From Klebsiella phage vB_KpnS_IME279: a stretch of DNA of 42,518 nt. Position numbers and translations under genes: made by a program. Below, piece after piece: positions 4,442 through 37,211 of the stretch (its first letter is position 1; each line of letters begins with the position of its first letter). Where the stretch lies: sequence record MF614100.1, one strand, 5' to 3'. The notes under the pieces were generated by a model, which did no database searches, was not told the origin of the DNA, and was given only the letters and a program-made list of their open reading frames with translations.

Positions 4442-4659
4442 TCCCGGCGGACATTCAGCGCAAGGCTAAAAAGGTCCTCCAGCGCCACCTCGCCGGGGAG
4501 ATTAAGCCCCGGAAGCTGGTCGGCGGTCTGGGCCTCGCGCTGGAGGTTGGTTATCGCTGGCGGCTGCTGTCACGCGATAAGGGCCAGACGTGGGATCTCA
4601 TGTCCCACGAGAAGTACAACAAACTTACACGGGGCAAAAAGCCCCCTAAAATGAGATGA
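4438..4659 (+). CDS. Hypothetical small basic protein
   Basis: ATGA overlaps with both neighbours. Lys/Arg-rich. Confidence 0.55.
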   Translation: MIPADIQRKAKKVLQRHLAGEIKPRKLVGGLGLALEVGYRWRLLSRDKGQTWDLMSHEKYNKLTRGKKPPKMR

Positions 4660-9388: not shown

Positions 9389-9973
9389 TTACGGCCTCGC
9401 TGGCATAATGATCATCGTGGACGGTCCGAAAGGCGTCTTAAACTCGACGCGCATCGGCATATCTTTCCCAGCGAAGTGGAGATCCACAAACGGCATTTTG
9501 ACGCCGAATTTTTTCCCCAGCTTTTCGACGAGGCCCAGATATTCGGCCATCACTTTGACGTCCGTCACTGCTTTGGAGTTGTTCTTCGCGCTGTCGATCA
9601 CGCGGCCCAGATCAGGATAACGGGCGTCCACGACGTCAACCGTCCCGACGGCCAGACGCTGGCGGCGGAAGTCGAAGCCCTCCAGGTCCTGCGGCTTGTC
9701 GGCCATCTGCGCGCACCAGTACACGATCCCGGCTTCGGTATCGATCACGGCGGTGGAGTAGGCGCGCCCGGTCGGAGGTGTGGAGACATTCAGGATCAGG
9801 CCCTCCGCCGGGGCCTCGGTCAGCGCGGAGCGGGTGGAGAGCGCTACGTGGCCGTTAGACGTCTGGATCTCGTCGCCTTTGAAGTGTAAAGCGTTCAGGT
9901 AATACCGCACATCCTGGCGGCCTTTGGTGAGCTGGTGAGCGCGGAGCGCGTCAACGGGTGCATAGATGATCAT
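9389..9973 (-). CDS. Hypothetical protein, 194 aa
   Basis: Long ORF in the primase/dam operon. No confident domain call. Confidence 0.7.
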   Translation of the reverse strand: MIIYAPVDALRAHQLTKGRQDVRYYLNALHFKGDEIQTSNGHVALSTRSALTEAPAEGLILNVSTPPTGRAYSTAVIDTEAGIVYWCAQMADKPQDLEGFDFRRQRLAVGTVDVVDARYPDLGRVIDSAKNNSKAVTDVKVMAEYLGLVEKLGKKFGVKMPFVDLHFAGKDMPMRVEFKTPFGPSTMIIMPARP

Positions 9974-11732: not shown

Positions 11733-13787
11733 ATGGTAGAGACACTGGAGCGCCAGATAGCGGCGATCGACAAAGACGCCATACTCCGCGCGCTGGGCGA
11801 CTTGCCCGTGACTCCATACGATCATCAGTTCGTAGCGTATGAGGCTTGTCAGCAAGCTATCCGAAAATATCCCGGCCCGGTTATTGTCGATGCCGCCGTG
11901 TCTGCGGGTAAGACAATCATGATCGCCATGCTGGCGCGCCGGATCCGCGATCTCGGCTATCCGGCCATGATCCTGTCCCGCCAGGCGGAGATCATCGATC
12001 AGGACCATGAGGAGCTGAAAAACTTCCAGGTGTGGTCCTCGATCTACTGCGCGGGCATCAATAACACGAAGTCGAACAAATTCCCGATCATCGTCGGCTC
12101 GGAGGGTACGGTGATCGGCGGCATTAAGCCAGGCGAAAAGCTGGCGAACTATGCGCCGCTGTTCCTGCTGATTGATGAATGCCATCACGTCAACATTGAG
12201 GACCTGATCCGCTCGGAAAATCGCAAGGTCCCGGAGTACCTGGTGGAGAATGGGGCCTATGTGCTGGACGAGTTCGGCGAAAAGGTTCAGGTAGGGGAGC
12301 ACGTCGGCGAGACTTACGAAGAAATGATCGAGAGTGGCCGCGCCGCCTATACGATCATCATTCGCACGTTTCAGGAGCGATGCCGCCGCGTCCACGGTAA
12401 GGAGCTGCGGATCATCGGTTACACCGGGACGCCTTACCGGGGCTGCGAGTCCATCATCCAGCCGGACCTTAAGGAGCCGGGATTCTGGCGTAAGAAGGTA
12501 TGCGAGATCTCTACGGAATACCTGGTAAGCGTCGGCGCTGTCGTCCCGACACGCTTCGGGATCTCCGATCTCCGGTACGACCTGAGCCAGTGGCGATCGA
12601 CGGGCGAGGAGGGGATCAAGGAGTTTTCCGACGCTGATATGAAAGCGATGGAAGCCGCGATCCATAAGGACAAAAAGCTCACACAAAAAATCATGGCGGA
12701 AGTGTACGCCATCACTGAAAACCGTAACGGGGTGCTGGTGACGTGCGCCGGGGTCCGCCACTGCAAAGAGGCCGCCGCCGCGCTGCCGGAGGGGACGCCG
12801 TTCGCCATCATCACGGAGGACACGACGCCGCGCAAACGCCGCGAGATCCTCAAAGATGCCAATACGGGCAAAATAAAATTCATCTTCCAGGTTAACGCGC
12901 TCACGACGGGCGTCAACGTGCCTTTCTGGGACACGTCGGTGATCCTGCGTAAGATTGGCTCCCTCACCCTGTTAACCCAGCTCTTAGGCCGTGGGATGCG
13001 TATTCTTAAGCCGTTCCATCTGGCCGCCGGGTACACGAAAGAGGATCACCTGGTACTCGACTACGCCGGGACGCTCGACGAGCTGGGATCGTTGTACTTC
13101 TCCCCGCTGCTGGAGGCTTACCAGCATAACGCCGACGAGAGCAAGGGTAAGCTGGTTCAGCGCTGCCCGAAATGTTACGCGGCTGGCCGCACGGTCATGA
13201 ATGGCGAACATGCCCGCCGTTGCCGCTGGGTGGATCCTGATACGAAGATCCGATGTGACCACTTTTTCACGTTCATAACCTGCGACGACTGGAAGGACTC
13301 CAGCGGGAAGATCGTCACACAAAAAGGCTGCGGCGCGAAAAATGACATTGTGGCCCGCATTTGCCGCTGCTGCGGTAATAGCCTCGTGGATCCGAATGAA
13401 AAGCTATCCCACACGGCATACAGCAAAGATGATTATTGCGCGGTCCGCGATTTCAGGATCGAGCCAGCGCGAGGCCGTAATGGCAACGATACGGGCGGCG
13501 TGGCTTTCCGGTACGTTCTGGAGCGTGACGGCGTGGAGTTTATCGCGTGGCAAGTGTTCTGGCCGGGTAGCGATTCCCCCCAGGCGCGCAAGGAGTGGCT
13601 ACATAACGCGGTCAATAAGCACGTACTGGACGGAAGCATGAGAAAGCAGATCAAGGAGTGCCGGACGGTCGGCGCTGTCATGAGTTACGCCGGGTACTTT
13701 ATGCGCCCGCTCAAAGTGACTCACCGCAAGATCGGCAAGGGTAAAGACGTTATTTCGAACAAGATTTTTCTGAATGAGGACTTTTAA
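11733..13787 (+). CDS. SF2 DEAD/DEAH-box helicase with a C-terminal zinc-finger region
   Basis: Walker A AVSAGKT, motif II LIDECHH, SAT-like GYTGTP. C-terminal CPKC...C..H...CCGNS cysteine clusters. Confidence 0.85.
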   Translation: MVETLERQIAAIDKDAILRALGDLPVTPYDHQFVAYEACQQAIRKYPGPVIVDAAVSAGKTIMIAMLARRIRDLGYPAMILSRQAEIIDQDHEELKNFQVWSSIYCAGINNTKSNKFPIIVGSEGTVIGGIKPGEKLANYAPLFLLIDECHHVNIEDLIRSENRKVPEYLVENGAYVLDEFGEKVQVGEHVGETYEEMIESGRAAYTIIIRTFQERCRRVHGKELRIIGYTGTPYRGCESIIQPDLKEPGFWRKKVCEISTEYLVSVGAVVPTRFGISDLRYDLSQWRSTGEEGIKEFSDADMKAMEAAIHKDKKLTQKIMAEVYAITENRNGVLVTCAGVRHCKEAAAALPEGTPFAIITEDTTPRKRREILKDANTGKIKFIFQVNALTTGVNVPFWDTSVILRKIGSLTLLTQLLGRGMRILKPFHLAAGYTKEDHLVLDYAGTLDELGSLYFSPLLEAYQHNADESKGKLVQRCPKCYAAGRTVMNGEHARRCRWVDPDTKIRCDHFFTFITCDDWKDSSGKIVTQKGCGAKNDIVARICRCCGNSLVDPNEKLSHTAYSKDDYCAVRDFRIEPARGRNGNDTGGVAFRYVLERDGVEFIAWQVFWPGSDSPQARKEWLHNAVNKHVLDGSMRKQIKECRTVGAVMSYAGYFMRPLKVTHRKIGKGKDVISNKIFLNEDF

Positions 13788-14295: not shown

Positions 14296-15342
14296 ATGGA
14301 ACTACAAACAAACGGCCTGATCCCTGAGCTGCCGACAATGGAAGTTTACGGATCGATGTTTATCGACGCCCGCGCGGCGGAGGACCTGAGTAACGAAGCC
14401 TATCACGAGGACGAGATCTATATTACCGGGTCGAGCCTCTGGACCATTTTTAGCCAGTGTCCGGCGGCGTGGCGTTTCCAGAAAGCACAGGAGGACAAGG
14501 CCAAAAAACTTAACTCCGCCCAGAAGCCGCTCACGTTCGGGACCACTTCCCACACGATGTTACTTGAGCCGGACCGCTTCCAGCGCGAGTTTTACCGCCT
14601 GCCTAACCCGGACGACTTCCCGGAGCTGATTACCTCAATGGCGAAGATGCAAGCCTGGTTAAAGGAGCGCGGCCAGAAGGGCTACTCCAACAAAACGGCG
14701 GAGGAGCTGATCGCGATGTGTCGCCAGATCCAGCAACCGGACGAAGTGCTAAACATCTGGCACGAGATCGAGGCAAACGCCATCAAAGAGGCGAACGGTC
14801 GCGAGATCGTCCCTGCGAAGGACTGGGACCGCGTTCACTCTATGCGCGACGTGCTACTGGCTAACCACAATTACCGCCGGATCATTGAGACTGGGATCCC
14901 GGAGCTGTCCATCTTCTGCATTATCGACGGCGTTCCCGTTAAGGTGCGTCTGGACCGCGTGACGGACCTCGGCGAGATCATCGACTACAAAACCACGCAA
15001 AGCGCGGAGCCGGAGCGCTTCGGGCGTCTGGCTCACGATCTGGGCTACTGGTGCAAGATGGCGTTACAGCATGACTGCTTCCAGCTCTGCTACCAGCAAA
15101 ACCCGACCGGGACGAAGTTACTTGTACAGGAGAAAGACGAGCCGTGGCTGGCGCTCATGAATCGCCTTACGCCTGAGCAATTGATGATCGGGCGCGGCCA
15201 GTACAAGACGGCGCTCCAGCTCTTTAAACAGTGCCGCGATCTGGATATCTGGCCCGCCTACGCGAACGGCCAGGAGGAGATCGACCTCCGCACTCCGATT
15301 TATTTACAGCAACGTTACAAAGAATATTTTAAGGAGATCTAA
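14296..15342 (+). CDS. PD-(D/E)xK exonuclease (RecB/Cas4-like fold), probable recombination exonuclease partner of ERF
   Basis: LDRVTD...EIIDYKTTQ motif. Sits immediately upstream of the ERF and SSB genes. Confidence 0.65.
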   Translation: MELQTNGLIPELPTMEVYGSMFIDARAAEDLSNEAYHEDEIYITGSSLWTIFSQCPAAWRFQKAQEDKAKKLNSAQKPLTFGTTSHTMLLEPDRFQREFYRLPNPDDFPELITSMAKMQAWLKERGQKGYSNKTAEELIAMCRQIQQPDEVLNIWHEIEANAIKEANGREIVPAKDWDRVHSMRDVLLANHNYRRIIETGIPELSIFCIIDGVPVKVRLDRVTDLGEIIDYKTTQSAEPERFGRLAHDLGYWCKMALQHDCFQLCYQQNPTGTKLLVQEKDEPWLALMNRLTPEQLMIGRGQYKTALQLFKQCRDLDIWPAYANGQEEIDLRTPIYLQQRYKEYFKEI

Positions 15343-16068
15343 ATGGAAAACATCATCCAGTTTTCGGCCACTCGTGGCGAGTTTATGAAAGCGTTTTTTG
15401 CCGCCCGGAAGAACATCGGCACGATCTCCAAAACGCGCAAAAACGATCACTTAAAATCGACTTACGCCAACCTGTCGGACTACCTGGACGCCATCGACTC
15501 CGCGATCGAGGAGCAAGGCTTGATGGTGATCCAGTCTCCGGGCGCGTTTACCGCTGCGGGCGATATGCCGATGGAAACCAGGATCGAGCATGTCGAATCG
15601 GGCGAGTTTATGGTGGCGCTCATGGAGATCCACGTCGATCGCAAAAACGCCCAGGGCGACGGCTCCGCGATTTCCTACGCCCGCCGCTACCACATCGGCG
15701 CGCTGTTCGGTCTGACTGCCGACGACGACGACGGCCACGGCGCTAAACGCAAGTTTGCCGACTACAAAAAAGAGTTTGACCTGATCGAAGATATTACCGA
15801 ACTGAAAAAAGAGGCCCGCGTGGCGTTCATGTACCTGAAAGGCCAGGAGACGGAGCAAAACCTGATCCACGAGTACGTCGCGAAGCGTGAAGCCAAAGCG
15901 GCGGCCTCTACTGCGGTCGGCTTCAATCCGGCGGCCCCGGTTGCTCGTCGTGGTCAGAAACCGCAAAATGCGCAAGCCCCGGTACAGGGGCAGACGCCGG
16001 AGCCGGAAACGAAAGAGGCCCCTGCTCCGGTACAGGACGACAAAAAACCGAATCTTGAGGACTTCTAA
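15343..16068 (+). CDS. erf: ERF-family single-strand annealing protein
   Basis: [24 protein letters not shown] motif of the ERF superfamily, followed by the SSB gene. Confidence 0.8.
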
Positions 16069-16070
16069 AC

Positions 16071-16619
16071 ATGGCATCACGCGGCGTAAATAAGGTGATT
16101 CTGGTCGGCAATCTGGGACAGGATCCCGAAGTAAGATATATGCCGTCGGGCGGGGCGGTCGCGAACATCACGATCGCCACCTCTGAGTCCTGGCGAGATA
16201 AGCAGACCGGGGAGCAAAAAGAACAAACGGAATGGCATCGCGTGGTTCTGTTCGGCAAGCTGGCGGAGATCGCCGGGGAGTACCTCAAAAAAGGCTCACA
16301 GGTCTACATTGAGGGCCAGTTACGGACGCGCAAATGGACAGACCAGCAAGGCGTCGAGAAGTACACGACGGAGGTCGTCGTGAACGTTGGCGGCACTATG
16401 CAAATGCTGGGTAGCCGGGGCGGGAATGATGGCGGCCAGTCTGGGGGGAACGGTGGCGGGCGTCAGTATTCCGGCCAGACCTCCGGCGGGAATGGCAATT
16501 CTCGCAATTCTCCGGGCCGTGGCGGGGCGCAAACGCAAAAAGGCGGGGGTAGTAGCCAAAATGCCGGACAAGGCGCTGGAGAGCCTCCTATGGACTTCGA
16601 CGACGATATCCCGTTTTAA
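16071..16619 (+). CDS. ssb: Single-stranded DNA-binding protein
   Basis: [48 protein letters not shown], Gly-rich linker, C-terminal [10 protein letters not shown] identical to the E. coli SSB tail. Confidence 0.95.
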
Positions 16620-20067: not shown

Positions 20068-23000
20068 TTATTGGTTTACCGCCTGCGGCGTCGTGCTGGC
20101 CGGAGCTGCTCCCGGTGCGGCGGCTGCACTTGCTCCGCTGCCGGAGAAGTACCCCACGATCCCCGCCCGGTTAACTGCGGCTTGCTCCTCCGGGGACATT
20201 GCCGCGAAAAGCTCACGCCACTGGGCGGAATTTGCCATTTCTCGCTCGGCCTCGGTCACAAAGCGACGGCCCGCCGGGGAGAGGCGTCCGCTACTCTGAG
20301 CCGCTGCGGCCTGCATAAGTTTATTAAATGCGCCGCTAGAAAGCACGTTATCAGCAAGGACCGATCGAGGGACTCGGTTAGCACGGGCGATCCCCTGAGC
20401 TGCGGAGAGGGCGGCGTTAGCTGCCGGGCCTCCAGCCAGATAGGCGGCGGTATGCTTGCCGATCCACCCAGCCGCGCCGTAGAGCTTGGACAGCGGGCCG
20501 CCAGCTCCAGGATCGTCGAAGCGCTTCACGAAGTCATTGATCGCCCCGGTGGTCGTGGTCAGACGCTTGGCGCGATCGATACCCTGAGCCACGCGGTAAA
20601 TCTGCATAAAGCGGACGCGCTGCTCTCGCGGTAAATGCTTCATAACGTTACCCAGAGTGCCGTTAGCCTGCGCGGTCTTGTACCAGTCAACGAAGCCCGG
20701 CAAAGCGAAGGTATCGCGCGCGCTACGCGCGCCCAGAGTACGCTCCAGCGCGTTAGCCACTACCTCGCCTTTGAGGCTCTCCGGGGTGGCCGCCATCAGT
20801 CGATCCCAGTCGCGGGCGTTGCCGCCTTTTTTGCCCAGGTTGAGGATCGCCGTCTGCACCTTGCCAGTGATCGAGCCGTCGAGGTTCTCGCCCAGCGTTT
20901 TCATTGCGATCGTTTCCAGGTCCTTACGACGCTTAACGAGCTGTTTCCCCACGTTCCAGTCGTCCGCCGCGCCATACTGGGCCGCGACTCGCTCCTGGTC
21001 GTCAGTAAGGCGCGCATAAAGCCGCGCGAGCTGCGCCGGGGTTTCGTCCTTAAATACGCCTTGCTTCTGGTTCAGCGCCTGGCCCACCTGCTTACGCAAC
21101 GTATCAATGCGCGCATAGGTCGGCGTAGTCGATACGGCCTGATCAGGTAAGCCAGTGACCGGATCCACCTTGCCGGGCTTCGGAGCCATCCAGTCGAGCG
21201 CCTTACGCTCTGCGGCGGACATATACGCCTCGCCGCCCAGCTCGTCCGCGCGCGCCGTCAGATAATCGACGGTGCTCGTCGGGTTAACGGGCGCATTGTT
21301 CGGGATCTTCGCGCCGATCTTGTTGTAAACATCATCGGCCTGTTTCCCCAGATCGTCGATAATGGCGCGGGTGCGGGTCGTGAATGCCTGATCCAGCGTC
21401 TGCGCGTTCATGCTCCCCATGCTGTCGATCAGCTCGTCCGCTTTCCCGGCCAGACGTCCGATCCCTTCGAGCTGCTGAGTCTCCAGGTTAGAGCCTTTGC
21501 GGCTGGCGAGCTGCTGGACCGTCATACGAAATTCAGGATCCCGCGCATACGCCGCCGGGGTGAGAGAATCGGCGATCCCCAGCTCCTGAGCGGCGCGCAT
21601 AACCTTGCGATCGACGTCGGCCATGTTGGCAAGATCCATCATGTCCTCGGACGCCTTGAGCGGCTGGCCTGCCGGACTTACGACGGGCTGGCCGTTCTCG
21701 CCTGCTACCTGTCGGTCCGGCGTCAGCCTAAACTTGCTCTGGTCACGGGCCACAGCGTCGGAAATTCCCGCCTCCGTCGTGGGCGGAATATCCCCGGCTC
21801 CACGGCCAGCGGCTGCGCCAGCATCGCCAGCCCCTGCACCAGCGGCCCCCAGGTCCTCCCAGACGCCCTTAGCCGTATTCCACAGCTTACTCCCCCCACC
21901 AATGACAGCACGGCCCAGCGCCTCACCTGCGGGCGCTAGTGCGATGTTCGTCAGCGTCTCCTCCGGGTCGCCACGGCCAGCCGCGATAGATCCGGGAACG
22001 GCACGAGCCGCCGGAGCTGCGATCCACTTCTGGATCCCGTCTGCGACGCGGGTTAATACGCCCGCCGCCTCCGGGCTGGCGCGCTCTGCGAGTCCCATCA
22101 GCTCCGTAGCTGCTTTGGCCTTACCTGCGGACGGCAACGGCGCGAGGAGGTCCCCGATCAGGGTCCCGATCTGCGCGTATTTGTCGGTAGGCGGTTCGAA
22201 GCCGGGGATCGTCCCCGGCGGGATGTTCGGCGCTTGCGTGTCCTGGTCAACGATACCCAGCGACTTACCCGCATCCGTGGCCGCGTTGGAAACCATATTG
22301 ACCAGCGAGATCGGCGTGTTGAGGAGGTCGATCCCGGTCTGGACGATACCGCGCCCGCCCTGGTCGAGAGCGTGGAGCGCGGTCTGGCCTAACTGTTCCC
22401 AGTTTTGGGCTGCTTGTTCGTTGGGATCGACGGATCCAGGGGCCTGTCCGGCTTGATCAGCGCTGCCCGGCTCTCCGTTACCGTTCGGCGCTGCCGCCCC
22501 TCGTGCGACATTAGATCCCGCTTGATTAGGTACATTGCCAGCGGGGACGGCTGCGACTTGCTGATCGGCCCCTCCGGCTCCGGCGGTTGCGCCATTTTCT
22601 CCAGCTCCGGCGGTAAAGGTTCCTGCTTCGTCGAACTGGTCGAAAAAGTTACCAGAAGATTTAGAGCCATTCCGGCGGGCGCTGGTTGCGCGCTGAATAG
22701 GTTCGCCGCTATCGCCAGCCCCTCGACCAGTCCACTCGTTAAAACGTTCATCCACATATTGACGCCCCTCCGGGCCGGGGGTTGCCTGGCCCGCCAGTTG
22801 TTTGTCTACGTTGCCGGGGCCGTCGTGGTAAGCCTGGAGCGCAAGGCCCCAGTCTCCGTAGCGCTGGTACATCTGGGACAGGTACTGCGCCCCGGCGTCA
22901 GCCTGGAGCGCCGGATCGCTTTTGAGGGCGTTCCAGTCGTAACCCATATCCTCCGCCGTGCCTTTCATGACCTGCGTTAAACCGTGCGCGCCTTTGCTGG

Positions 23001-23211
23001 AGACGGCGGACGTAGGATCCGCCGTGCCGCCCGTTTCCTTGCTCGCGAGTGCCGTCATGATGCCAGCGGGTAGGCCCCATCGTGCCCCGGCGCTCTCCAG
23101 TAAATCAGAATACCCGCCGCCAGACGATCCCGCTTGCGAAGGAATCTGATTAGGGAGCGCCGTCGCATTTTTAGGCATGTTCTGATCAAACTGGTCGAAG
23201 AAATTCGCCAT
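20068..23211 (-). CDS. Internal virion/ejection protein with an N-terminal lytic transglycosylase (SLT) domain
   Basis: ASKETGGTADPTSAVSSKGAHGLTQVM plus AYHDGPGNV SLT motifs, then a long Ala/Gly/Gln-rich region. Occupies the position of P22 gp16. Confidence 0.85.
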   Translation of the reverse strand: MANFFDQFDQNMPKNATALPNQIPSQAGSSGGGYSDLLESAGARWGLPAGIMTALASKETGGTADPTSAVSSKGAHGLTQVMKGTAEDMGYDWNALKSDPALQADAGAQYLSQMYQRYGDWGLALQAYHDGPGNVDKQLAGQATPGPEGRQYVDERFNEWTGRGAGDSGEPIQRATSARRNGSKSSGNFFDQFDEAGTFTAGAGENGATAGAGGADQQVAAVPAGNVPNQAGSNVARGAAAPNGNGEPGSADQAGQAPGSVDPNEQAAQNWEQLGQTALHALDQGGRGIVQTGIDLLNTPISLVNMVSNAATDAGKSLGIVDQDTQAPNIPPGTIPGFEPPTDKYAQIGTLIGDLLAPLPSAGKAKAATELMGLAERASPEAAGVLTRVADGIQKWIAAPAARAVPGSIAAGRGDPEETLTNIALAPAGEALGRAVIGGGSKLWNTAKGVWEDLGAAGAGAGDAGAAAGRGAGDIPPTTEAGISDAVARDQSKFRLTPDRQVAGENGQPVVSPAGQPLKASEDMMDLANMADVDRKVMRAAQELGIADSLTPAAYARDPEFRMTVQQLASRKGSNLETQQLEGIGRLAGKADELIDSMGSMNAQTLDQAFTTRTRAIIDDLGKQADDVYNKIGAKIPNNAPVNPTSTVDYLTARADELGGEAYMSAAERKALDWMAPKPGKVDPVTGLPDQAVSTTPTYARIDTLRKQVGQALNQKQGVFKDETPAQLARLYARLTDDQERVAAQYGAADDWNVGKQLVKRRKDLETIAMKTLGENLDGSITGKVQTAILNLGKKGGNARDWDRLMAATPESLKGEVVANALERTLGARSARDTFALPGFVDWYKTAQANGTLGNVMKHLPREQRVRFMQIYRVAQGIDRAKRLTTTTGAINDFVKRFDDPGAGGPLSKLYGAAGWIGKHTAAYLAGGPAANAALSAAQGIARANRVPRSVLADNVLSSGAFNKLMQAAAAQSSGRLSPAGRRFVTEAEREMANSAQWRELFAAMSPEEQAAVNRAGIVGYFSGSGASAAAAPGAAPASTTPQAVNQ

Positions 23212-24528
23212 TTAAAGCCCCTCCGGTAAAAATCCGAATTTTGCCTTAAATTGCTCTTTACGGGTAGGGGTAGGCTCCGCATAAAGTGCGTCGATCGCCG
23301 CCTGCGCATTTTGAACGGGCATCCCCCCAGCCGAAAGCTGGCCGACTGCTGCCGTCTTGTTGTCGTCGATCGCAATGTCGCGCTTGTACGCTTCGACGCG
23401 CCCGCCCTGCGACTTCTCGATCGCGTCCTTGCCTTTGCTGAGGGCGTCAACGTAGCGCTGCATGACGTCTTTAAGCTGCTGCTCGCTCATGGTTTTAGGG
23501 TCGGCATTAATCAGCGCCTGAGCTGCGGCGCGGCCCTCCTGCTCGGTTACGGGTCCAGTACCGCGCAAAGCCTGAATACCCGCGACGCGGGCCTGGTCTT
23601 TCATCTGGTTAAGCTGGTTCATGATTTCCGCCGTAGCGTCACCCCCACCAGTGGCCGCACTCCATGCCCTGTTACCCAGACCATTGATCCCGGTCACGAA
23701 GCCCAGATCCTTACGCTGCAAAAGGCGGTTAGCCTGGTCGATCGCGGTATCGATCGGCGCGAGCGTGGTCTGGTACGTCTGGAGAAAGTCGCGTTTCGTG
23801 TTGAGCTGGTCGGCCTGCATCTTGCTTTGTTGCTGGACCAGTTTCGAGCGCTCAATGTCGTTTTTCTCCTGCGCGATCCGGGTGTTAAGTCGCTCGTTCT
23901 GGAGGCCAATATAGCGGAGGTTTCGGTCCGCCGCGTTGCTGGCCGCCGTGAGATCCTGCCCCCTGATCGTGGTCTGGTTTTTCATCGTCTCTTTGGCGTA
24001 GTCCAGTTGGTCCTTGCTGGTATTGCTCGCCAGGTGGAGCGCCTGCACGGAGCGACGGAAGCCGTCCGGGTCGGTCGCTGCGGCCTGATAGGCTTTCTGC
24101 GGGTCGATACCCAGCGCCTTAAGCGCGTCCGCGTTCTGCTGGACAAACTGCTGGGCCTGCTCCGGCCCCTGCGAGAGAGCGACGTCCGCCTGGCTGGCGA
24201 GCTGCGCGCCCTGCTGCTGGCGGATCCCGTCCATCATGCCCAGGCGCTTTTGGAGCGCCTCGATCTGGTTCGGGTACTTGTACGCCAGCGCCTGCAATTT
24301 CGACGGATCACCCTGCGCGGCCTGCCAGTCAACATTGAATTGCTTCATTTGCTCCTGTTGCTGCTGGGCGGCCTGCATTGCCATTCCCTGCTGTCGGTTC
24401 TGGATCGCCGCTGCGGTGTTCTGCTGGATCTGGCCGTAGTTGTTTAGCGTGTCCTGCGCGCCCTGCTGAATGATCCCGATATTCTGCGCGAAGGATCCAA
24501 CGTTGGGATCAGTGCCGAAAATAGCCAT
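23212..24528 (-). CDS. Ejection protein, gp20-like by position, Gln-rich
   Basis: 438-aa Gln/Ala-rich coiled-coil protein between the gp7-like and gp16-like genes. Confidence 0.65.
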   Translation of the reverse strand: MAIFGTDPNVGSFAQNIGIIQQGAQDTLNNYGQIQQNTAAAIQNRQQGMAMQAAQQQQEQMKQFNVDWQAAQGDPSKLQALAYKYPNQIEALQKRLGMMDGIRQQQGAQLASQADVALSQGPEQAQQFVQQNADALKALGIDPQKAYQAAATDPDGFRRSVQALHLASNTSKDQLDYAKETMKNQTTIRGQDLTAASNAADRNLRYIGLQNERLNTRIAQEKNDIERSKLVQQQSKMQADQLNTKRDFLQTYQTTLAPIDTAIDQANRLLQRKDLGFVTGINGLGNRAWSAATGGGDATAEIMNQLNQMKDQARVAGIQALRGTGPVTEQEGRAAAQALINADPKTMSEQQLKDVMQRYVDALSKGKDAIEKSQGGRVEAYKRDIAIDDNKTAAVGQLSAGGMPVQNAQAAIDALYAEPTPTRKEQFKAKFGFLPEGL

Positions 24529-25190
24529 TAGATAAAGCTCCCGAACATATTACCGAACATGGAGGCCCCGGTGTTCATATCCTGCGCCACGCCCTGGTTA
24601 AGCGCGTTCTGGCTGTAGCCTGCCACCTGCCACGGCAAGGCCGCTTTAGCCGCGTTTACGTTGCCTTTCTGGCCCTGTAGCGCGTTAAGGGCGTTGGTCC
24701 CTTGTGCCGCTGCTGCGGACTGCGCGCCAGCGCCGGACAGGCCCACGTTAACCAGGCCCATAAGCTGGTTATACATGTCTTGCTGCTGCGCCGTCATTTG
24801 CGCGAGGTAGTTCTGGCCCAGCGTCGGCGCGATGGTGGTCAGGGAGTTGGCCGTGGCCGCCCCGCCTAAGTTGCCCGTAGCCTCTGCGCTGGCTAACAGG
24901 GAGTTACGCGCCTGGCCCTCGGCCATCTTGTACTCGTTGCCGTTGTAATACTGCTGGAGCGTTTTCTCCCGATCGATCGGCTGGCCCGCCAGTGCGATCA
25001 GGTCAGGGAGTGCGCCCGTCCCTGCTTCACGGAAAGGCGAGAGCCACGCGTCCTGTCGGTTCATCAGGTCGCGCTGCCAGTCCATCTGTTTATCGAGGCT
25101 CTTTTGTTGCTGCTTTGCCGCCTTATTAGCGCCAATGCCGCCTAAGATGCCTCCGACGGCGTTACCGACGCCGCTAACAATTCCGCCCAT
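24528..25190 (-). CDS. Ejection protein, gp7-like by position, Gly-rich N-terminus
   Basis: MGGIVSGVGNAVGGILGGIG N-terminus, Gln-rich body. SD GAGGAGG. Confidence 0.6.
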   Translation of the reverse strand: MGGIVSGVGNAVGGILGGIGANKAAKQQQKSLDKQMDWQRDLMNRQDAWLSPFREAGTGALPDLIALAGQPIDREKTLQQYYNGNEYKMAEGQARNSLLASAEATGNLGGAATANSLTTIAPTLGQNYLAQMTAQQQDMYNQLMGLVNVGLSGAGAQSAAAAQGTNALNALQGQKGNVNAAKAALPWQVAGYSQNALNQGVAQDMNTGASMFGNMFGSFI

Positions 25191-28709: not shown

Positions 28710-29987
28710 TTACGCGGGCTGCTTCGGCAGTAACAGCCCCACATATTCCGGGACCAGTACGGACACGCCGTAAAGCGTGGTAAAACGAGCCGTACACACG
28801 CCCGCGATGTGGTTGAAGTCCCAGGACATGATCAGGGTAGCGCCGTTCTTCGTGCGGCTACGCATGACTTTAGGCCCCATGTCGGACGGGAATGCCAGGT
28901 TGCCGAACATGAGTTCTACGGAGCCGTCGGCCCATGCCAGGTTTCCGTTAGCGGCCACTTTGTTGATCACGGTGATAGCCGCGCCGCTTGCTGCGTTGGC
29001 GTCAACGTTAGCATACGGACGAGACGGCAGATCCGCGTTATTGACCGGGAGGATCTGCGGGGTGATCGTGATGTTGTTGCCGGAAACGTCCAGGACGCGG
29101 AACGTCTGGAGCTGGTCGGTCGTGTCCTTGCTGATCATATGGACGGAGTGAACGCCCGCGATCGTGAACGCGTCGCCCGTTTCCAGACCGTGACCAGCGG
29201 AAACGGCGATGATGCCCTGGCGGTTATCGATCGGGACGTCGTTCGCGTTTTTGGACTGGACTTTGTGCGCCGGGGCTGCGGTCAGGGTGATCGCGCCAGT
29301 CGGGCCAGCGCCTACGCGCGGAGCCAGATCGACCTTATACGCGTCAAAGCTCGCGATATCCGGGATTTTCGCCTTTTCGAAAGCGCTCTGGTTGATGCCT
29401 GCGGAGTACGCACGGCCCGCCAGCTCGCCCGCGATATCTTTGTAAGAGAACGGCTCTACAAAGGCGCGGCGAGGGACGCCCATCGGGATCCCGATAGAGG
29501 TCATTTTCGCGTCCAGGGTCGCGAAACCGTTCCACAGGTCTTTACCCAGCGTACCCGTAGAGTTATCGCCTACGGTTGCGACCTGAGTCGCGTAACGGCC
29601 TGCGGTGTTCGCCACGTCAGAATCGATCTGAGCGGCCAGACGCAGGGCAGCGGCGCGGCCCATTTCTTTCATGTACTCCGGGCGACGCATTTCGCGCGCG
29701 TCCAGTTTCCACAGGACGTTCTGAGGCTCTTTGAACGCAGACGGGACCAGACGCTCCACGATATCGGTCGGCTGTTTGGAGGTCAGATCCAGACCTTCGA
29801 CGATATCAGCGTGGTAACGCTGCGGGCGATAGATGACGTCACCTGCTTTCTGCATGGTTTCATCATCCGGGCGGTATTTGGAGGCGTTGTTAGACATTAC
29901 GCAGGCAGCGTCAAAGCTCTCTACGTACTCCTCCCACATAATTTCTACTTGCTTTGCTACCTGGTTAGCCATTCTCTGTTTCTCCAA
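28710..29987 (-). CDS. Major capsid (coat) protein, P22 gp5-like
   Basis: 425 aa. C-terminus GNLAFPSDMGPKVMRSRTKNGATLI...GVCTARFTTLYGVSV parallels the P22 coat C-terminus. Preceded by the scaffold gene. Confidence 0.9.
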   Translation of the reverse strand: MEKQRMANQVAKQVEIMWEEYVESFDAACVMSNNASKYRPDDETMQKAGDVIYRPQRYHADIVEGLDLTSKQPTDIVERLVPSAFKEPQNVLWKLDAREMRRPEYMKEMGRAAALRLAAQIDSDVANTAGRYATQVATVGDNSTGTLGKDLWNGFATLDAKMTSIGIPMGVPRRAFVEPFSYKDIAGELAGRAYSAGINQSAFEKAKIPDIASFDAYKVDLAPRVGAGPTGAITLTAAPAHKVQSKNANDVPIDNRQGIIAVSAGHGLETGDAFTIAGVHSVHMISKDTTDQLQTFRVLDVSGNNITITPQILPVNNADLPSRPYANVDANAASGAAITVINKVAANGNLAWADGSVELMFGNLAFPSDMGPKVMRSRTKNGATLIMSWDFNHIAGVCTARFTTLYGVSVLVPEYVGLLLPKQPA

Positions 29988-30005: not shown

Positions 30006-30974
30006 TTAGTCTTTCTTCTCTAACTTTGCTTTCAGCTCAAAATATGCGTCCCAGTTGCCGGAGCTGCGCGCTTTTTCCTTCGCTGCTTCGAGCTGGCCGA
30101 TATTTTTAGCGCCGCCGTTGCCTTTCACCTGCGGAGCGCCGTTAACGTCTTTCTTCGCTCTCGGCGCGGTCCCTGCTCGGCGATCAATGTCGGCGATCAG
30201 GTAGCCCAGGCGAATATGGTCGTTATTATAGGCGTCCTCGATCTCTTGTCGCAATTTTTCGTTACGCGCAAGAGCCATAACGGTAAGGGTAGGCTTTTGA
30301 CTGTTCAGAAGCAAAGCGGCTTGCAGCGGCTCCGGCAGGGACGACACGATCTCCTCTGCCTGCTCATAGCCTGCGAATTTCTTCACGGCCACGGCGCGAT
30401 CCTGCTTGTACACTTCGCCGCGCTCCTGGATACGCGTCTGGAATTGCTCGGCCTTAGCCTGCTGGGTTTTCTGGTGAGCTTCGGCCTCGGCCTTTTGCTC
30501 ATACCATTTGTCCATCGCCTCGGCCAGTTTGCCCTCGTCCCAGTCGATCCCCTCGTCGCCTAACTGCGGCTTAGGCGGCAGATTGTCGAGACTGGTCGCG
30601 GGCTTGTGTTCGGTCTGGGTGGATTTCTGTTTGAGCTGGCGGGACTGCTCGCGGAGCTGCGCGCGTAATTTCTTCACCAGCTCGGAGTCGTTCGCGCCGT
30701 CCTCTACCTCGTCAGGATCCGCCAGGGGCTGGCCGTCGAAGGTAAACTCCTCTCCCTCGTCCTCGCCGTTCGGATCGTCGGTGGTGGTGCGCTGGCGCTC
30801 CGGGTTGTCGTCGTCGTTCGGATCACCTTCGCCGCGCTCGCCATTGTCGCCAGGATCGGAGTCGTCGGTGGTGGTTTCTGCGGTCTGTTCAGCCGCTCCG
30901 CCGCCAGCGTCGCCGCCCTGAGTGCCGTCGTCAAAGGCTGCGTAGTATTTTAACCATGCGTTACGAAATTTCAT
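30006..30974 (-). CDS. Scaffolding protein, with an unusually acidic low-complexity N-terminal 100 aa
   Basis: Highly charged helical protein immediately upstream of the coat gene. Asp/Glu/Gly-rich N-terminus. Confidence 0.65.
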   Translation of the reverse strand: MKFRNAWLKYYAAFDDGTQGGDAGGGAAEQTAETTTDDSDPGDNGERGEGDPNDDDNPERQRTTTDDPNGEDEGEEFTFDGQPLADPDEVEDGANDSELVKKLRAQLREQSRQLKQKSTQTEHKPATSLDNLPPKPQLGDEGIDWDEGKLAEAMDKWYEQKAEAEAHQKTQQAKAEQFQTRIQERGEVYKQDRAVAVKKFAGYEQAEEIVSSLPEPLQAALLLNSQKPTLTVMALARNEKLRQEIEDAYNNDHIRLGYLIADIDRRAGTAPRAKKDVNGAPQVKGNGGAKNIGQLEAAKEKARSSGNWDAYFELKAKLEKKD

Positions 30975-31115
30975 TGTAGATCCCCGTTTTGTTGCATACG
31001 CGATGTATTTCGCCCATCGGTGGCGGGGATAAGTGTAAGAGAAGTTTTACATCATATGCAAGGGGGAAAGGTTTAAGGCCGATCCCCCCAGAGGTGGCGG
31101 GCTAATTTGTGGCTA

Positions 31116-31586
31116 TCAGAAAGGGATATCAAGCGGCTTGTCGTTGTTGGCCGGAGGAACGATCTCGGCGTCCTCCACGTCCTCCGCTTTGCGCGGGTTC
31201 ACTTCGCGAGCTGCGTCCGCTGCGGCCACAAAATCGCCCTCCAGCGGCCCCTTGTAGGTCAGTTGTTTAATGCTGGCGATATCTGCGAGGAGCTTCGACT
31301 CTGCCACCACGAAGTCGGCGCGGAGTTTCTGGAGTCCGGCTTCCATGATCGGGAGGCTGATCTCTGCCTGCTCCTCGGCGGTCGGCATGGTGTAATCAAT
31401 ATCGATCTCGATCTCTTTTAACAAGACGTAAGCCGCATTTTTGCCGCCTGAATTAATATGCTCCTGGACGCCCCAGATCGCGCCGTAATCGTAACTTTCC
31501 ACGGACACGGATCCGCGCTTGTCGCCGCCCTGGCTACCTTCGGCCACGCAAAGGCAAACGTACATTGTTTTTTTGATAGTTGGCAT
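31116..31586 (-). CDS. Hcp (T6SS tube protein)-like protein with a C-terminal acidic tail ending DIPF
   Basis: MYVCLCVAEGSQGGDKRGSVSVESYDYGAIWGVQEH ... LKEIEIDIDYTMPT matches the Hcp pattern Y..I.G..G.S...IKGS..V....W.G.SQ ... K.ID..TP. The last residues, KPLDIPF, were checked codon by codon. SD AGAGGA. Confidence 0.6.
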   Translation of the reverse strand: MPTIKKTMYVCLCVAEGSQGGDKRGSVSVESYDYGAIWGVQEHINSGGKNAAYVLLKEIEIDIDYTMPTAEEQAEISLPIMEAGLQKLRADFVVAESKLLADIASIKQLTYKGPLEGDFVAAADAAREVNPRKAEDVEDAEIVPPANNDKPLDIPF

Positions 31587-31610: not shown

Positions 31611-31628
31611 GGCGGGACGATGCCCGCC
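31611..31628 (-). other. Intercistronic GC hairpin GGCGGG-N6-CCCGCC followed by CCACCCC before the start codon
   Basis: Member of the recurring hairpin-plus-motif family (see findings). Confidence 0.45.
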
Positions 31629-32849: not shown

Positions 32850-32881
32850 TGTGAGAAAGAATAGCCCGGACGTACCGGGCT
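32850..32881 (-). terminator. Probable (partial) terminator after the portal gene
   Basis: AGCCCGG-TACGT-CCGGGCT followed by ATTCTTTCTC on the minus strand. Confidence 0.5.
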
Positions 32882-32912
32882 GTAAAGTGTTTTTTTACTG
32901 CTTTCGTTAAAA

Positions 32913-35147
32913 TTATTGTGCGGCACGTTCCAGGGTGCTGTCGGCCTGCTGCTGCGCCTGGCGCTCGGCCAGTTGCTGCGCTGCGCGGTCGCTCTGGATC
33001 TGGTGGCCCTGCCCGACGGATTTCAGGAACAAGTCGGCCTGTTTGTGCGCGTCCTGGCTCTGGGCCGTGACGTACTTCTGGAGGATGGCAACGGCGGCCA
33101 TTAGCTGATCCTGCGGGATAGCTGCGGCCTCGGCCATCGTCTTGACGGTCTGCGCCTGCTTGAGCTGGCCGTCTGCCTGCGTCCCCTGCGCCTTGAGCTG
33201 CAATTCTAAACGCTTGTTGTCCTGCTCCATAACGGCGGCCTTGCCCTGGTCTGCCACGCCCTGCGCTGCGACCATCTGCGCGTCCGGCTGGTCCTGCTGG
33301 CTCTGCTGGGCCTGCGCTACCATCTGTTTTTCCTCGTCCGTCTGCGGCTTCACAATGCCGGAGAGTAAGAGCTGGTTGCGGGTGTACTCTTTGAAGTCCT
33401 GGAGGCCCTCGCCGTCCATGTTCGCGATGATCAGGCTCATGACGATCGTCGCGTTAGGGTCGCCCGGTTGCATGGTCGCTAACAGGTTAGTCAGGCTGCG
33501 GACAGTCTGCTGGCGTCGCGTCTGGGAGGACTCGCCGACGTCGGCCACGATCTCATATTTGCCGCGCTTGAGGTCGTTAATCGCGATCACTTCCTTCGTC
33601 TCGCGATCGACAACCTTCCCGGTCATTAATACGAGGTCGTCGCTCCCGTCCTCCTGCTGGATCCTCACGTAAGACTCGGAGCCGTAAACCTTGCGAGCGG
33701 CGGACAGGTAGACGCGGCCACAATGGCGCAACGTCTTAGCCAGGTTGTCCATGTAGAGCGCGCCCTGGCCGTCCATGCGCGCGAAAATTGCCTCCACGGT
33801 TTCAGTCGCCAGATTCGACGGCAGCGCTTCGAGCTGGGAGGATCCGACAATCTGCTGGATAGTCGCCCCGGTGTACTGGAGAACGGCAGCGAGCGCCGGA
33901 GAGAGCGGAGTCGCCGGAGTATAGCCCAGCGGTCCGGCCTGCTGGACGACCTCACCAGACGCATTACGGAGCGATTTAGCGGGCAGGTATGCGGGGCGCT
34001 TCGTGTTTCGATCCCCCCAGGCGTTGGCGAGATTTCCGGGGATCATGTCGATATCCATGATCGGGATGTTGTCGCCGCCTGCCTGCGCGGCCTGGTCGGC
34101 CATCATGGACACGATCAGGTTTTCCAGACGCTGGGCGTCCATCGCGAGCGTGGCGTGGCCCATCACGCGCTCCTGGTTGTCGATAAACGAGCGGCGCGCG
34201 TTGAAGATAAAGACCGGGATCCATTCGAACGGGATCAGCTTCGGCTCCTCGATCCACTCCCCGCCGGAAAACAGACCGCAATAGACCTTACGACGTTTGA
34301 CACGGCGATCCTTGAGCTTTTTCCAGCCTGCGGCCTTAAGCTCGTCGAAAACCTGCTCCATGTCGTCCTCGTCGTAAACCTCCGTTTCCCCGGTGAGCGG
34401 GTTCTGGTAGGAGATCACGGTGGTGTCCTCGATCTTCACCTCGTAGTAACGGGCGATATAAATCGCGTCTTTAGAGGCCCAGTCAAACCATTTGCCCGTG
34501 TTCAGCTCCATGAGGTCCTCCGGGGCCATCGCGTCCGGGTAACGCTCCTCGTACTTCTCCGGGGTCATGCTGAATAGCTCGGCCATCCACATAGCATCAC
34601 TGCGATCGTACATTTTGGAGTCAGGATCGACAAAGAGGCACGAGGCCGGATCGTAGATCGGGTAAAAGACGATATGACGCTCCTCATTGTCGGGATCAAA
34701 TTCGTCCTCCAGCTCCGTGTCCATGCGAAACGCGCCCATCCCGCCGTCGATGCCGTCGCCGTAAGTGTTATCGACGGACTCCGGCCCGTTGCTCTCGTTG
34801 TAGTCGGCGCGGAATTTGCCGTTTAGCTTGTCGGCCAGCTCCTCGGATGCCTTTTCGTCCTTCGGACGGAATACCACGGAGACACGGTTAAGGCGGTAAT
34901 CGGTGATCAGGCGGTCGCACTCGCGGGCCACTTTGTTAAGTTCGAATCGAGGGTATTTCTCGAATCGTTCATCATCCATCGCAAAGCCGGAGTTGGTCGA
35001 TCCTTCCCACTGCGCGCCCGGAATACGGACAAAGCGCTGGGTTTCGATCATTTTCTTGCGGCTTTGCTCCTCGCTGGCGATCGTCTGGCTCAGGCGCTTG
35101 CGCGCCGTCTCATGCCAGTTCTGGGCCGATTTGGTGACTCGTGCCAT
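32913..35147 (-). CDS. Portal protein, P22 gp1-like with a C-terminal Gln-rich barrel region
   Basis: LKDRRVKRRKVYCGLFSGGEWIEEPKLIPFEWIPV aligns with P22 IAERQIKRRRVYKSI...GEHIPIVPVFGEW. The C-terminus is Gln/Ala-rich, as in the P22 portal barrel. Confidence 0.9.
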   Translation of the reverse strand: MARVTKSAQNWHETARKRLSQTIASEEQSRKKMIETQRFVRIPGAQWEGSTNSGFAMDDERFEKYPRFELNKVARECDRLITDYRLNRVSVVFRPKDEKASEELADKLNGKFRADYNESNGPESVDNTYGDGIDGGMGAFRMDTELEDEFDPDNEERHIVFYPIYDPASCLFVDPDSKMYDRSDAMWMAELFSMTPEKYEERYPDAMAPEDLMELNTGKWFDWASKDAIYIARYYEVKIEDTTVISYQNPLTGETEVYDEDDMEQVFDELKAAGWKKLKDRRVKRRKVYCGLFSGGEWIEEPKLIPFEWIPVFIFNARRSFIDNQERVMGHATLAMDAQRLENLIVSMMADQAAQAGGDNIPIMDIDMIPGNLANAWGDRNTKRPAYLPAKSLRNASGEVVQQAGPLGYTPATPLSPALAAVLQYTGATIQQIVGSSQLEALPSNLATETVEAIFARMDGQGALYMDNLAKTLRHCGRVYLSAARKVYGSESYVRIQQEDGSDDLVLMTGKVVDRETKEVIAINDLKRGKYEIVADVGESSQTRRQQTVRSLTNLLATMQPGDPNATIVMSLIIANMDGEGLQDFKEYTRNQLLLSGIVKPQTDEEKQMVAQAQQSQQDQPDAQMVAAQGVADQGKAAVMEQDNKRLELQLKAQGTQADGQLKQAQTVKTMAEAAAIPQDQLMAAVAILQKYVTAQSQDAHKQADLFLKSVGQGHQIQSDRAAQQLAERQAQQQADSTLERAAQ

Positions 35148-35164
35148 TGTGTTCTCCGTGGGTG

Positions 35165-36787
35165 TCAGTAGTTGCTCGGCACATTATAGCCGTGATAGTC
35201 GTCGTTTTTCACGCGCTCCGGCGGCTGCATCAACATGCAAAGCACGTCGGCCATGCCTGGCGATTTCATTTTGAGCTTGGTCCGCATCTGCGGCTTAGGC
35301 ATACGGGCAAACTTGCCATTGGTGTTGTATACGCGCGGAATACGGCAGACCTCGGCGCGTAACTTCTGCATATGCTCCCCGATCCCGGCCTTGTCCAGAC
35401 TGATCAGCTCCTCCGGGTTGTGGTAGATGCCCTTAACCACGGCCTCGTAAGTCTTTTCAAAGCGACGGCGTAACAGGTAGATATCCTGGCTTCCCCTGTT
35501 CGCAAAAGCATCAACATTTTTCAGGAGGTTGTCGCCCTCGGTCTTGTTATTGAGCCAGTGATCCAGCTCCACCAGCCCGTCCGGGTCTTTGACGCCCTCC
35601 CCGGCGTTGTAGCCGTCCACGATAACGTTAGTCCCGGCGTAAGCCTCCGTTACCTGGCGACGCAGGCCAGCGCCCAGCCCTGCCCGGTCCCACACAAACG
35701 CCTCGACGCCGTGGATCTTCGCCTCGCCGATCGCCCGGTCTACTGCGTCGTTAGCGTCGCCCTCGTACCACTCGGACATATGGGTGACGACTGGCCCCTG
35801 GCGCTCGCCATAGGCTTTGTTATCGGTCCCGACGTCCGCCGGGTCGAGTGCTGCGATCCTCATGCCGGACGGTTTAAAGCCTAAATGCAAATGAGCGTCG
35901 ATCGCGGCATCAAACCATTCAGCCGGGATAATGGCATCCGGCACGGAGTCATTGAAATGACCTTCCCAGACGTGATCGAACAAGGCGCGGGAGAGGGTTT
36001 TCCGGTCAAACTCCATTTCTGCGCGGAGTTCGGGCGGAAACCACGGGTTATCCGACCAGTTGACGCGGATAACCAGGTGGAGATCGTCCTCATAGATGCC
36101 GTCGCGGAGTAGATCCTCCCAGAATGGATTGATAAATCGCTTGCTGAATGGGTCCTCACTGGATCCGGGGTTGGCGGTGAATAGCATCATGCCGCCCTTT
36201 TCGCGCATGGTCGGCGTCAGCTTGCGGATCGACTCCTCGGAGAACGTTTGCGCCTCCTCGCCCCAGAATCGTTTAAAGCCGAAAGCGGATTTCACGCCGT
36301 CCGGGTCGCGGGCCATCCCCTTAAAACGGATGATCGCGCCGTTCTCGTGGCGGATCTCCTTCTCCAGAATTTCGAAGCCGTCCAGACCGTACTCCTCGAT
36401 CCGGTTGGCGAGGAGCGGGTGGACAGAATCCTTGATCGACGCCTGAAACTCACGCAGACACATAGCGCTCGCGGCCTCGTCGTGGGCGTCTGCATCCACG
36501 ATCCCGCCGACGGTGAGCGACTTCCCGGAGCCACGGCCCCCGACCAGGATAACGAAGCGTTTCGGGCGTAACAGGATGGGCGTCAGGCACTCGGCGATCG
36601 TAATGTCGTGCGGGTCGCTGGTGTAAACCCACTCGCCGTTAACCTTGCGCATGTTGTACAGGTGGCGCGCCTGCAATCCGTCCGGCGCATAGACGCCGTA
36701 AACCAGACCGCCCTCGCGCGCCTTGTAGCGGAGCATGGCCTCCAGTCGGGCCAGTCGCTCGATCGCTTCCTTACGATTTTTTGCCAT
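35165..36787 (-). CDS. Terminase large subunit
   Basis: Walker A VGGRGSGKS. Start chosen at MAKNRKEAIERL (SD-like GAAGGGGG), which overlaps the upstream gene by 17 nt. The ORF-track start at 36904 is rejected. Confidence 0.9.
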   Translation of the reverse strand: MAKNRKEAIERLARLEAMLRYKAREGGLVYGVYAPDGLQARHLYNMRKVNGEWVYTSDPHDITIAECLTPILLRPKRFVILVGGRGSGKSLTVGGIVDADAHDEAASAMCLREFQASIKDSVHPLLANRIEEYGLDGFEILEKEIRHENGAIIRFKGMARDPDGVKSAFGFKRFWGEEAQTFSEESIRKLTPTMREKGGMMLFTANPGSSEDPFSKRFINPFWEDLLRDGIYEDDLHLVIRVNWSDNPWFPPELRAEMEFDRKTLSRALFDHVWEGHFNDSVPDAIIPAEWFDAAIDAHLHLGFKPSGMRIAALDPADVGTDNKAYGERQGPVVTHMSEWYEGDANDAVDRAIGEAKIHGVEAFVWDRAGLGAGLRRQVTEAYAGTNVIVDGYNAGEGVKDPDGLVELDHWLNNKTEGDNLLKNVDAFANRGSQDIYLLRRRFEKTYEAVVKGIYHNPEELISLDKAGIGEHMQKLRAEVCRIPRVYNTNGKFARMPKPQMRTKLKMKSPGMADVLCMLMQPPERVKNDDYHGYNVPSNY

Positions 36788-37211
36788 CGTCGGCCCCCTT
36801 CTCAGCGAATAACGTCGAGGCGGCCATGAAGCCATGATAGGCCAGATCCTCGGCAAAATATGCCTGGTGCTCGTCGTTGTCCAGGTCTGGCCGGACGCCT
36901 GCATGACGCCAGATATTATTGATCGCGTGGACGTTCTCGTGGACCACGCGGCCCAGTAGCTGGTTAGGGTTCGGCACGTAACGCAGGCCGATAAACTGAT
37001 AACGGAAGCCGTCGATCGTGACGTCGTGGCACAGCGCCCCGGCTCCCTGGGAATATTCTTTGACCTTGTGGAGCTTTACGCCTGCTTTGCGCACTCGCGC
37101 CAGGTCGTCGAGGTCATACCAGACGACGAGCGTCCGGTACATATCGATCAGGTGTTGCGGCAGGCCGGACGCCTCGATCCTCTCGCGGGTGGACTTATTT
37201 TTTTTGCTCAT
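36771..37211 (-). CDS. HExxH-motif protein (putative small zinc metallopeptidase) between TerS and TerL
   Basis: VVHENVHAINNIWRH carries an HExxH plus downstream His/Glu arrangement. Overlaps both TerS and TerL by 17 nt. Confidence 0.55.
   Translation of the reverse strand: MSKKNKSTRERIEASGLPQHLIDMYRTLVVWYDLDDLARVRKAGVKLHKVKEYSQGAGALCHDVTIDGFRYQFIGLRYVPNPNQLLGRVVHENVHAINNIWRHAGVRPDLDNDEHQAYFAEDLAYHGFMAASTLFAEKGADDGKKS

Follow-up and report, generated by a model that had tools for sequence, protein, structure and literature searches.

Why should a small protein encoded among the head genes of a P22-like phage end in the same residues as that phage's own SSB? The question is raised by a locus of Klebsiella phage vB_KpnS_IME279 (MF614100.1), of which we analysed a stretch of 42,518 nucleotides (the window). 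Around this locus it shares 98% identity with Escherichia phage sortkaff (Sortsnevirus IME279). The original prediction described an open reading frame here with a DIPF end, and both the ORF list and the sequence show it to be real and exactly as first described. It begins at an ATG (31586), nine nucleotides downstream of an AAGAGGA ribosome-binding site, stops at a TGA (31116-31118), and encodes a protein of 156 aa. The C-terminus, ...KAEDVEDAEIVPPANNDKPLDIPF, finishes in DKPLDIPF, with DIPF directly before the stop codon (C-terminal peptide, PPANNDKPLDIPF), and the sortkaff counterpart, like every other member of the family, is annotated as a hypothetical protein. The companion claim that the phage's SSB ends in DDDIPF also held, as that protein is a genuine SSB by its PF00436 match (E=9.5e-42) and ends in DFDDDIPF. 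In a six-frame scan of the window, the 156-aa ORF and the SSB gene are the only two plausible genes ending in IPF. Given the amino-acid composition of the window and its 55 non-overlapping ORFs, chance would supply about 3e-4 additional DIPF endings, and about 3.5e-3 endings of the looser form [DNG][IVLF]PF. As for descent of the tail from the 3' end of ssb, the stretch in common, GATATCCC, is too short to be informative.

Table 1. Positions in the window of the genes, protein segments and intergenic region discussed in the text.
Feature	Positions	Strand	Basis or remark
156-aa orphan protein, CDS	31116..31586	(-)	ORF list and sequence; protein = sortkaff_55 at 100% identity
Residues 1-69, small alpha/beta domain	31380..31586	(-)	AlphaFold2 pLDDT >90; A1
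Residues 70-110, amphipathic helix of 41 residues	31257..31379	(-)	AlphaFold2; best-conserved block
Residues 109-124, motif LTYKGPLEGDFVAAAD	31215..31262	(-)	invariant in A1; partly kept in distant members
Residues 135-143, acidic motif EDVEDAEIV	31158..31184	(-)	A1, A2, collected tails
Residues 152-156, L-D-I-P-F-COOH, SSB-type tip	31119..31133	(-)	collected tails, A2
Phage SSB gene	16071..16619	(+)	PF00436 E=9.5e-42; phrog_44; tip DDDIPF at 16599-16616
Intergenic region, 156-aa gene/scaffold	30975..31115	(-)	sortkaff comparison; 10-phage DNA alignment A3
Cassette gene, 138 aa	31636-32052	(-)	phrog_35278, function unknown
Cassette gene, 145 aa	32374-32811	(-)	between portal and scaffold
Scaffold	30006-30974	(-)	phrog_648
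Coat	28710-29987	(-)	PF11651
P22-type portal	32913-35147	(-)	PF16510
TerL	35165-36904	(-)	P22-type morphogenesis operon
gp7-type ejection protein	24528-25190		P22 family PF25688
gp20-like ejection protein	23212-24528		P22 family PF16928
SLT-carrying gp16 analogue (ejection protein)	20068-23211
Primase-helicase (AAA_25), tail ...DDLNDF	533-2191	(-)
SF2 helicase, tail ...FLNEDF	11733-13787	(+)
PDDEXK exonuclease	14296-15342
Erf, tail ...NLEDF	15343-16068	(+)

The tip has been kept across the family. All 19 distinct tail variants among the sequences collected, down to ~31% identity, end in PF-COOH. Position -3 is Ile in 14 of them (otherwise Phe in two, Val in two and Ser in one) and position -4 is Asp in 15 (Gly in three, Asn in one). 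Twelve read L-D-[IFV]-P-F, while the Leu at -5 is missing from the remaining seven (PDIPF, DGIPF three times, FNVPF, DDFPF and KDSPF). P155 and F156 are nearly invariant in an alignment of 13 diverse members (A2) that reaches down to 31% identity, and the tip is retained in distant members at 31-43% identity, which end in ...DDDALDVPF (P0024), ...EKDDFPF (P0026) and ...FKDSPF (P0027). At the nucleotide level, the gene differs from its sortkaff counterpart at nine positions, all synonymous, and five of these fall at third positions in the final five codons, those of L-D-I-P-F. Together, these comparisons indicate that the tip is under purifying selection. The same five synonymous differences cluster where a deletion junction abuts the stop codon of the gene. 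The deleted neighbour belongs to the sortkaff_54 family (88 aa), which is usually encoded just downstream of the 156-aa gene and is present in nine of ten compared phages, missing only from the window; comparison with the sortkaff locus 7103-7369 identifies a short remnant of its 3' end within 31092-31115, past the stop of the 156-aa gene (GCCACAAATTAG, against GCCACGAAATAG in sortkaff).

Tip and spacer have been lost cleanly in the Murrayvirus EC2 clade (sortsyn, IME_EC2 and P0020-23) and in P0010, where the shortened copies end in ...DAEIV, with an ATGA overlap onto the following gene. By this pattern the tip is a selected but separable module, and because tail-less copies exist, the core protein must have a function independent of the tip. 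No other non-SSB protein ending in IPF was found in the genome of Sortsne, which lacks the 156-aa gene and was scanned in full, nor in the examined regions of sortsyn, which carries a tail-less copy. The SSB tip DDDIPF is invariant in six related phages and Sortsne, and since every SSB examined ends in this way, covariation between the tip and the SSB is uninformative. Kc166B encodes a copy of the 156-aa protein ending in NVPF alongside an SSB ending in DIPF.

How far does the likeness to SSB extend? As in bacterial and phage SSBs, the distal D-I-P-F stands at a free C-terminus, after a Pro-containing disordered linker whose length and sequence vary, and a true SSB with the same tip is encoded in this genome as well. 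However, SSB combines this end with an OB fold, a PF00436 match and the proximal segment DFDD, whereas the 156-aa protein is without all three and its N-terminal fold is unrelated to known structures. In the window, DIPF is preceded by NNDKPL, which includes a Lys, and other family members carry one to four acidic residues in the proximal segment, with DFDD in none. The proposal of an SSB-tail mimic thus survives in part: a DIPF-type end is conserved family-wide within an otherwise variable, disordered and acidic linker, with only synonymous change between the window and sortkaff, but the proximal DFDD is missing. The SSB C-terminal peptide (SSB-Ct) consists of DFDD followed by DIPF, and the ordered part in crystal structures is limited to DIPF in ExoI site A and to IPF in RecO (PMC10143822). 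The full octapeptide has an IC50 of ~4.5 µM on both ExoI and RecO, the DIPF tetrapeptide has an IC50 of 102 µM for ExoI and 45 µM for RecO, and the proximal DFDD adds ~10- to 20-fold affinity in SSB (PMC10143822). Because NNDKPL stands where SSB has DFDD, one tip of the 156-aa protein is predicted to bind weakly, and useful affinity would presumably call for avidity in an oligomer or for a contribution of the acidic motif upstream.

In the AlphaFold2 model of the protein, residues 1-110 have pLDDT >90, with strands at 3-15, 27-30 and 52-64 and two short helices, followed by the 41-residue helix 70-110 (pLDDT ~91) and a tail predicted to be disordered (pLDDT <50 in residues 111-147 and 153-156). 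The N-terminal domain is moderately conserved in A2 and among 24 close members (alignment A1). A CxC pair (C11 and C13; 31550-31556) and H43 (31458-31460) in this domain hardly vary within the close family, but are not kept in its most distant relatives, and may constitute a metal site or a redox-sensitive pair. The long helix is highly conserved, with the consensus LPIMEAGLQKLRADFVVAExKLLADIASIKQL and with L78, P79, E82, G84-Q86, L88-A90, F92, E96 and L100-I103 invariant in A1. Its best heptad register places eight hydrophobic residues at a/d positions, a pattern that suggests a possible coiled-coil or oligomerisation element. The central motif that follows, LTYKGPxEGDFVAAAD, is invariant in the close family yet lies within a segment predicted to be disordered, and for this reason LTYKGPxEGDF is likely a linear motif that binds a partner. 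The acidic motif, [DE]DAEI[VL], is kept even in distant members and forms the new C-terminus of the tail-less copies; between it and the tip lies a variable, Pro-rich spacer of 6-12 residues (A1, A2).

The family is small. We collected 23 homologs; an exhaustive profile search of 1.84 billion representatives recovered only five 50%-identity clusters, and IMG/VR holds four loci. P0025, which matches the family over its first 48 aa and is unrelated beyond them, was treated as frameshifted or chimeric and left out. Searches with phmmer and profiles assigned the 156-aa protein to no known family in Pfam, PHROGs or PDB sequences, and Foldseek found no structural neighbour in the PDB (E<=0.001) and only the Skarpretter homolog in BFVD. 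By these measures the modelled fold has no detectable known relative.

What the protein lacks narrows what it could do with such a tip. It is acidic in every segment (pI 4.45, net charge ~-12), it matches neither PF00436 nor PF22657, and its predicted fold is not an OB fold; being strongly acidic and without an OB fold, it cannot coat ssDNA as SSB does. For the same reasons, of the two roles first offered for the tail, competition with SSB (or an adaptor role) fits better and recruitment to SSB-coated ssDNA fits worse. We tentatively favour a decoy or adaptor that does not bind DNA and displays an SSB-type tip, and put the probability of this reading at roughly 0.45. The gene would be a late one, co-oriented with the packaging and head genes, and its product would present the tip off the DNA. 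As a decoy, the tip could draw away host proteins (ExoI, RecJ, RecQ, RecO, PriA or chi) or those of the phage itself (Erf, the exonuclease and the helicases). In the adaptor role, it could tether a protein that reads SSB tips to whatever partner recognizes LTYKGPxEGDF. The sequence shows the gene and its architecture, a conserved and selected tip, the acidity of the protein and its accessory status; from these we infer the binding of the tip to SSB-tip pockets, oligomerisation, the partner, and the choice between decoy and adaptor.

The C-termini of other proteins in the genome bear on this reading. Six of the 55 ORFs in the window end in Phe, and among these ends a conserved terminal Phe marks proteins of DNA metabolism (Table 1): it is shared by all the Erf homologs that we examined, the most distant at 37% identity, and by most homologs of either helicase. 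The C-termini of the portal, scaffold, coat and TerL proteins are not conserved, and no terminal Phe is kept in them. By its conserved C-terminal Phe, the 156-aa protein therefore groups with the DNA-metabolism set despite its location in the head operon. The T7 helicase-primase gp4 and the T7 SSB gp2.5 have acidic tails that end in Phe and dock at a common site on T7 DNA polymerase, and by analogy the DNA-metabolism proteins of this clade may form a T7-like network of C-terminal docking tails. Here, as in T7, a non-SSB phage protein has an acidic and aromatic C-terminal tail of the SSB kind. However, the T7 tails are of the DDF/DTDF type and sit on replisome enzymes of the replication module, whereas the 156-aa protein has a tail of the DIPF type, is encoded in the head operon and has no recognisable enzymatic or DNA-binding domain.

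A second, unrelated family of 175-181 aa was found in two relatives, Skarpretter (locus 35151-35696) and Kc166B (locus 1936-2460), with ends of the form [DE]-L-P-F (...DYDLPF or ...DSELPF). Its gene adjoins that of the primase-helicase, its members have no match in Pfam or PHROGs, and it has no homolog in the window. Separately, the metagenomic relatives that carry P0024 encode a protein of the Acb2/Tad1-hairpin type (PF24729, the anti-CBASS/Thoeris sponge family) upstream of their terminase genes, at 4334-4630 and 4342-4641.

A role in DNA metabolism leaves the head-operon position of the gene unexplained. That position is not in doubt: the gene lies between portal (PF16510) and scaffold (phrog_648), as first proposed, as the last of three small genes that fill this gap in the window. 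The phage is a podophage without a tail tube. This context, too, is as originally supposed, since beyond the gp7-type, gp20-like and SLT-carrying ejection proteins of Table 1 the phage also has homologs of P22 gp4 and gp10 and a tailspike with a P22 head-binding domain.

The strongest competitor to the decoy or adaptor reading accordingly makes the product a head-associated protein, be it an assembly factor or one that is internal to the head or ejected, which docks on portal, scaffold or coat by its C-terminal peptide and central motif and resembles SSB by coincidence. The gene occupies the same portal-scaffold position wherever it is found, including the P0024 lineage and Skarpretter at 32-43% identity, and it has the orientation of the late operon; T4 IPI* and P1 Dar, moreover, are precedents for accessory proteins that are packaged and whose genes lie close to head genes. 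Yet the gap itself is a mosaic, the small genes between portal and scaffold of ten phages clustering into about six optional families, and the 156-aa gene is present in seven of the ten, missing from Sortsne, Kc237 and Lumpael. Because these three phages have closely related head genes of the P22 type, the 156-aa gene is accessory and not required for building this type of capsid. One clade of carriers also lacks the tail, and the canonical P22 ejection proteins are encoded elsewhere, at 20068-25190; the families concerned (PF25688, PF16928 and the SLT-carrying gp16 analogue) have no match in the 156-aa protein by Pfam or PHROGs. The conserved terminal Phe, too, occurs in DNA-metabolism proteins and in no structural protein. 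The 'internal virion protein' labels in Kc237 are on different cassette genes, with no basis given, and a search of the literature on Sortsnevirus, Murrayvirus and Skarprettervirus found no virion proteomics or functional study. We consider a purely head-associated role unlikely.

The intergenic region that separates the 156-aa gene from the scaffold gene has a DNA sequence conserved among ten phages, even though their proteins are only 30-60% identical, and contains a GC-rich hairpin (GGGGGGATC...CCCC) and a sigma-70-like TTGCAT-18-TACACT. A hairpin in the scaffold 5' leader (ACCGATG...CATCGCGT) is conserved as well, with one compensatory pair by RNAalifold, A-U to U-A in Kc166B and the P0024 contig, and the region of this hairpin has no match in Rfam. 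The whole could serve as a scaffold promoter and translational operator, the latter suggested because scaffold synthesis in P22 is autoregulated. Two further elements lie upstream in the cassette. A 6-bp GC hairpin without a T-run (GGCGGG-ACGATG-CCCGCC, 31611-31628) occupies the 49-nt gap between the preceding cassette gene and the 156-aa gene, and a second, stronger one, accompanied by a weak promoter-like site, is found just downstream of the portal gene (32858-32886).

Could the C-terminus instead address a different host protein? L-D-I-P-F might be read as a beta-sliding-clamp-binding motif of the QLxLxL/QL[SD]LF type that tethers the protein to the host clamp. The clamp hexapeptide is x-L-x-L-P-L, as in QLSLPL of Hda, and the 12 of 19 tail variants that read L-D-[IFV]-P-F resemble it loosely. 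However, Gln is missing at position 1, and it is D/G-x-P-F that is kept while the Leu at -5 is present in only 12 of the 19. Its strictly terminal placement in an acidic setting is more in keeping with an SSB-type tip, and the phage's own supposed clamp-like protein finds no support as a clamp, all of which makes this reading highly improbable. That 194-aa protein (9389-9973, minus strand) is annotated as beta-clamp-like in relatives, but in the window its match is to phrog_3007 (E=5e-45), which is labelled a RusA-like resolvase. For PF02767, the Skarpretter homolog reaches only E=0.0034, short of the threshold.

The remaining alternative, a T6SS Hcp-type ring protein given an SSB tail, was the original prediction for the N-terminal ~135 aa, and we give it next to no credence, since the subjective resemblance of short N-terminal strings is all that favours it while Pfam, hhalign, the predicted fold and structure searches all stand against it. 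PF05638 matches neither the 156-aa protein (E<=10) nor a single one of the 24 family members (E<=1), while Hcp1 of P. aeruginosa, a positive control, scores E=3.3e-44 on it. Alignment of the family profile with Hcp1 in hhalign gives a probability of 0.14%, and the model is a three-stranded sheet with a long helix, not a beta-barrel. No T6SS or tube genes are found in the phage context, where the tail module is P22-type. Similar length (~160 aa) is thus the one thing shared with the Hcp and tail-tube fold, from which the 156-aa protein differs in sequence, profile, fold and genomic context. The negative result counts in its own right, as it leaves this podophage without an Hcp or tube protein.

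Returning to the decoy or adaptor reading, there is one more specific form of it, which we regard as unlikely: a multivalent SSB-tip decoy without DNA binding, made late, possibly packaged in the capsid and co-injected. P22-like genomes are terminally redundant and circularise through annealing of 3' tails by exonuclease, Erf and SSB, and ExoI, which is recruited by SSB-Ct, degrades 3' single-stranded tails. It is conceivable that a decoy delivered early, or present in abundance, would spare from ExoI the 3' single-stranded ends that are needed for circularisation. Such a decoy might in addition weaken defences whose activity is tuned by ExoI or SSB.

A further parallel is a phage protein that does resemble SSB. 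Bas52_0087, an SSB-like phage protein with an FDDDIPF tip, triggers DRT10 and has been proposed in a preprint to perturb host ExoI (10.64898/2026.04.29.721553). Like the 156-aa protein, it is a phage-encoded non-canonical protein that shows an SSB tip, and it is likewise proposed to perturb host nucleases that interact with SSB. However, Bas52_0087 has two predicted OB folds and the full FDDDIPF, and the 156-aa protein has neither. We found no description of a non-OB phage protein with an SSB tip in the searchable literature. Docking through SSB-Ct and the sharing of tails between phage replication proteins are known principles; the placement of such a tip on an orphan protein without an OB fold appears, from sequence, to be new.

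In bacterial genome maintenance, the SSB tip serves as the central docking peptide; at least 17 host partners read it, and it is a drug target. Mimicry of short linear motifs is common in eukaryotic viruses, and if the multivalent-decoy form of our reading is correct, the 156-aa protein would be the first viral protein reported to mimic the SSB interaction hub by a short linear motif on a non-SSB scaffold. A phage protein that displays the tip without binding DNA would act as a natural inhibitor or re-router of this hub and would represent a new class of host-takeover or anti-defence protein. Such a protein would also offer a ready-made probe for interactions between SSB and its partners, and phages such as these would be using motif mimicry against the SSB interactome.
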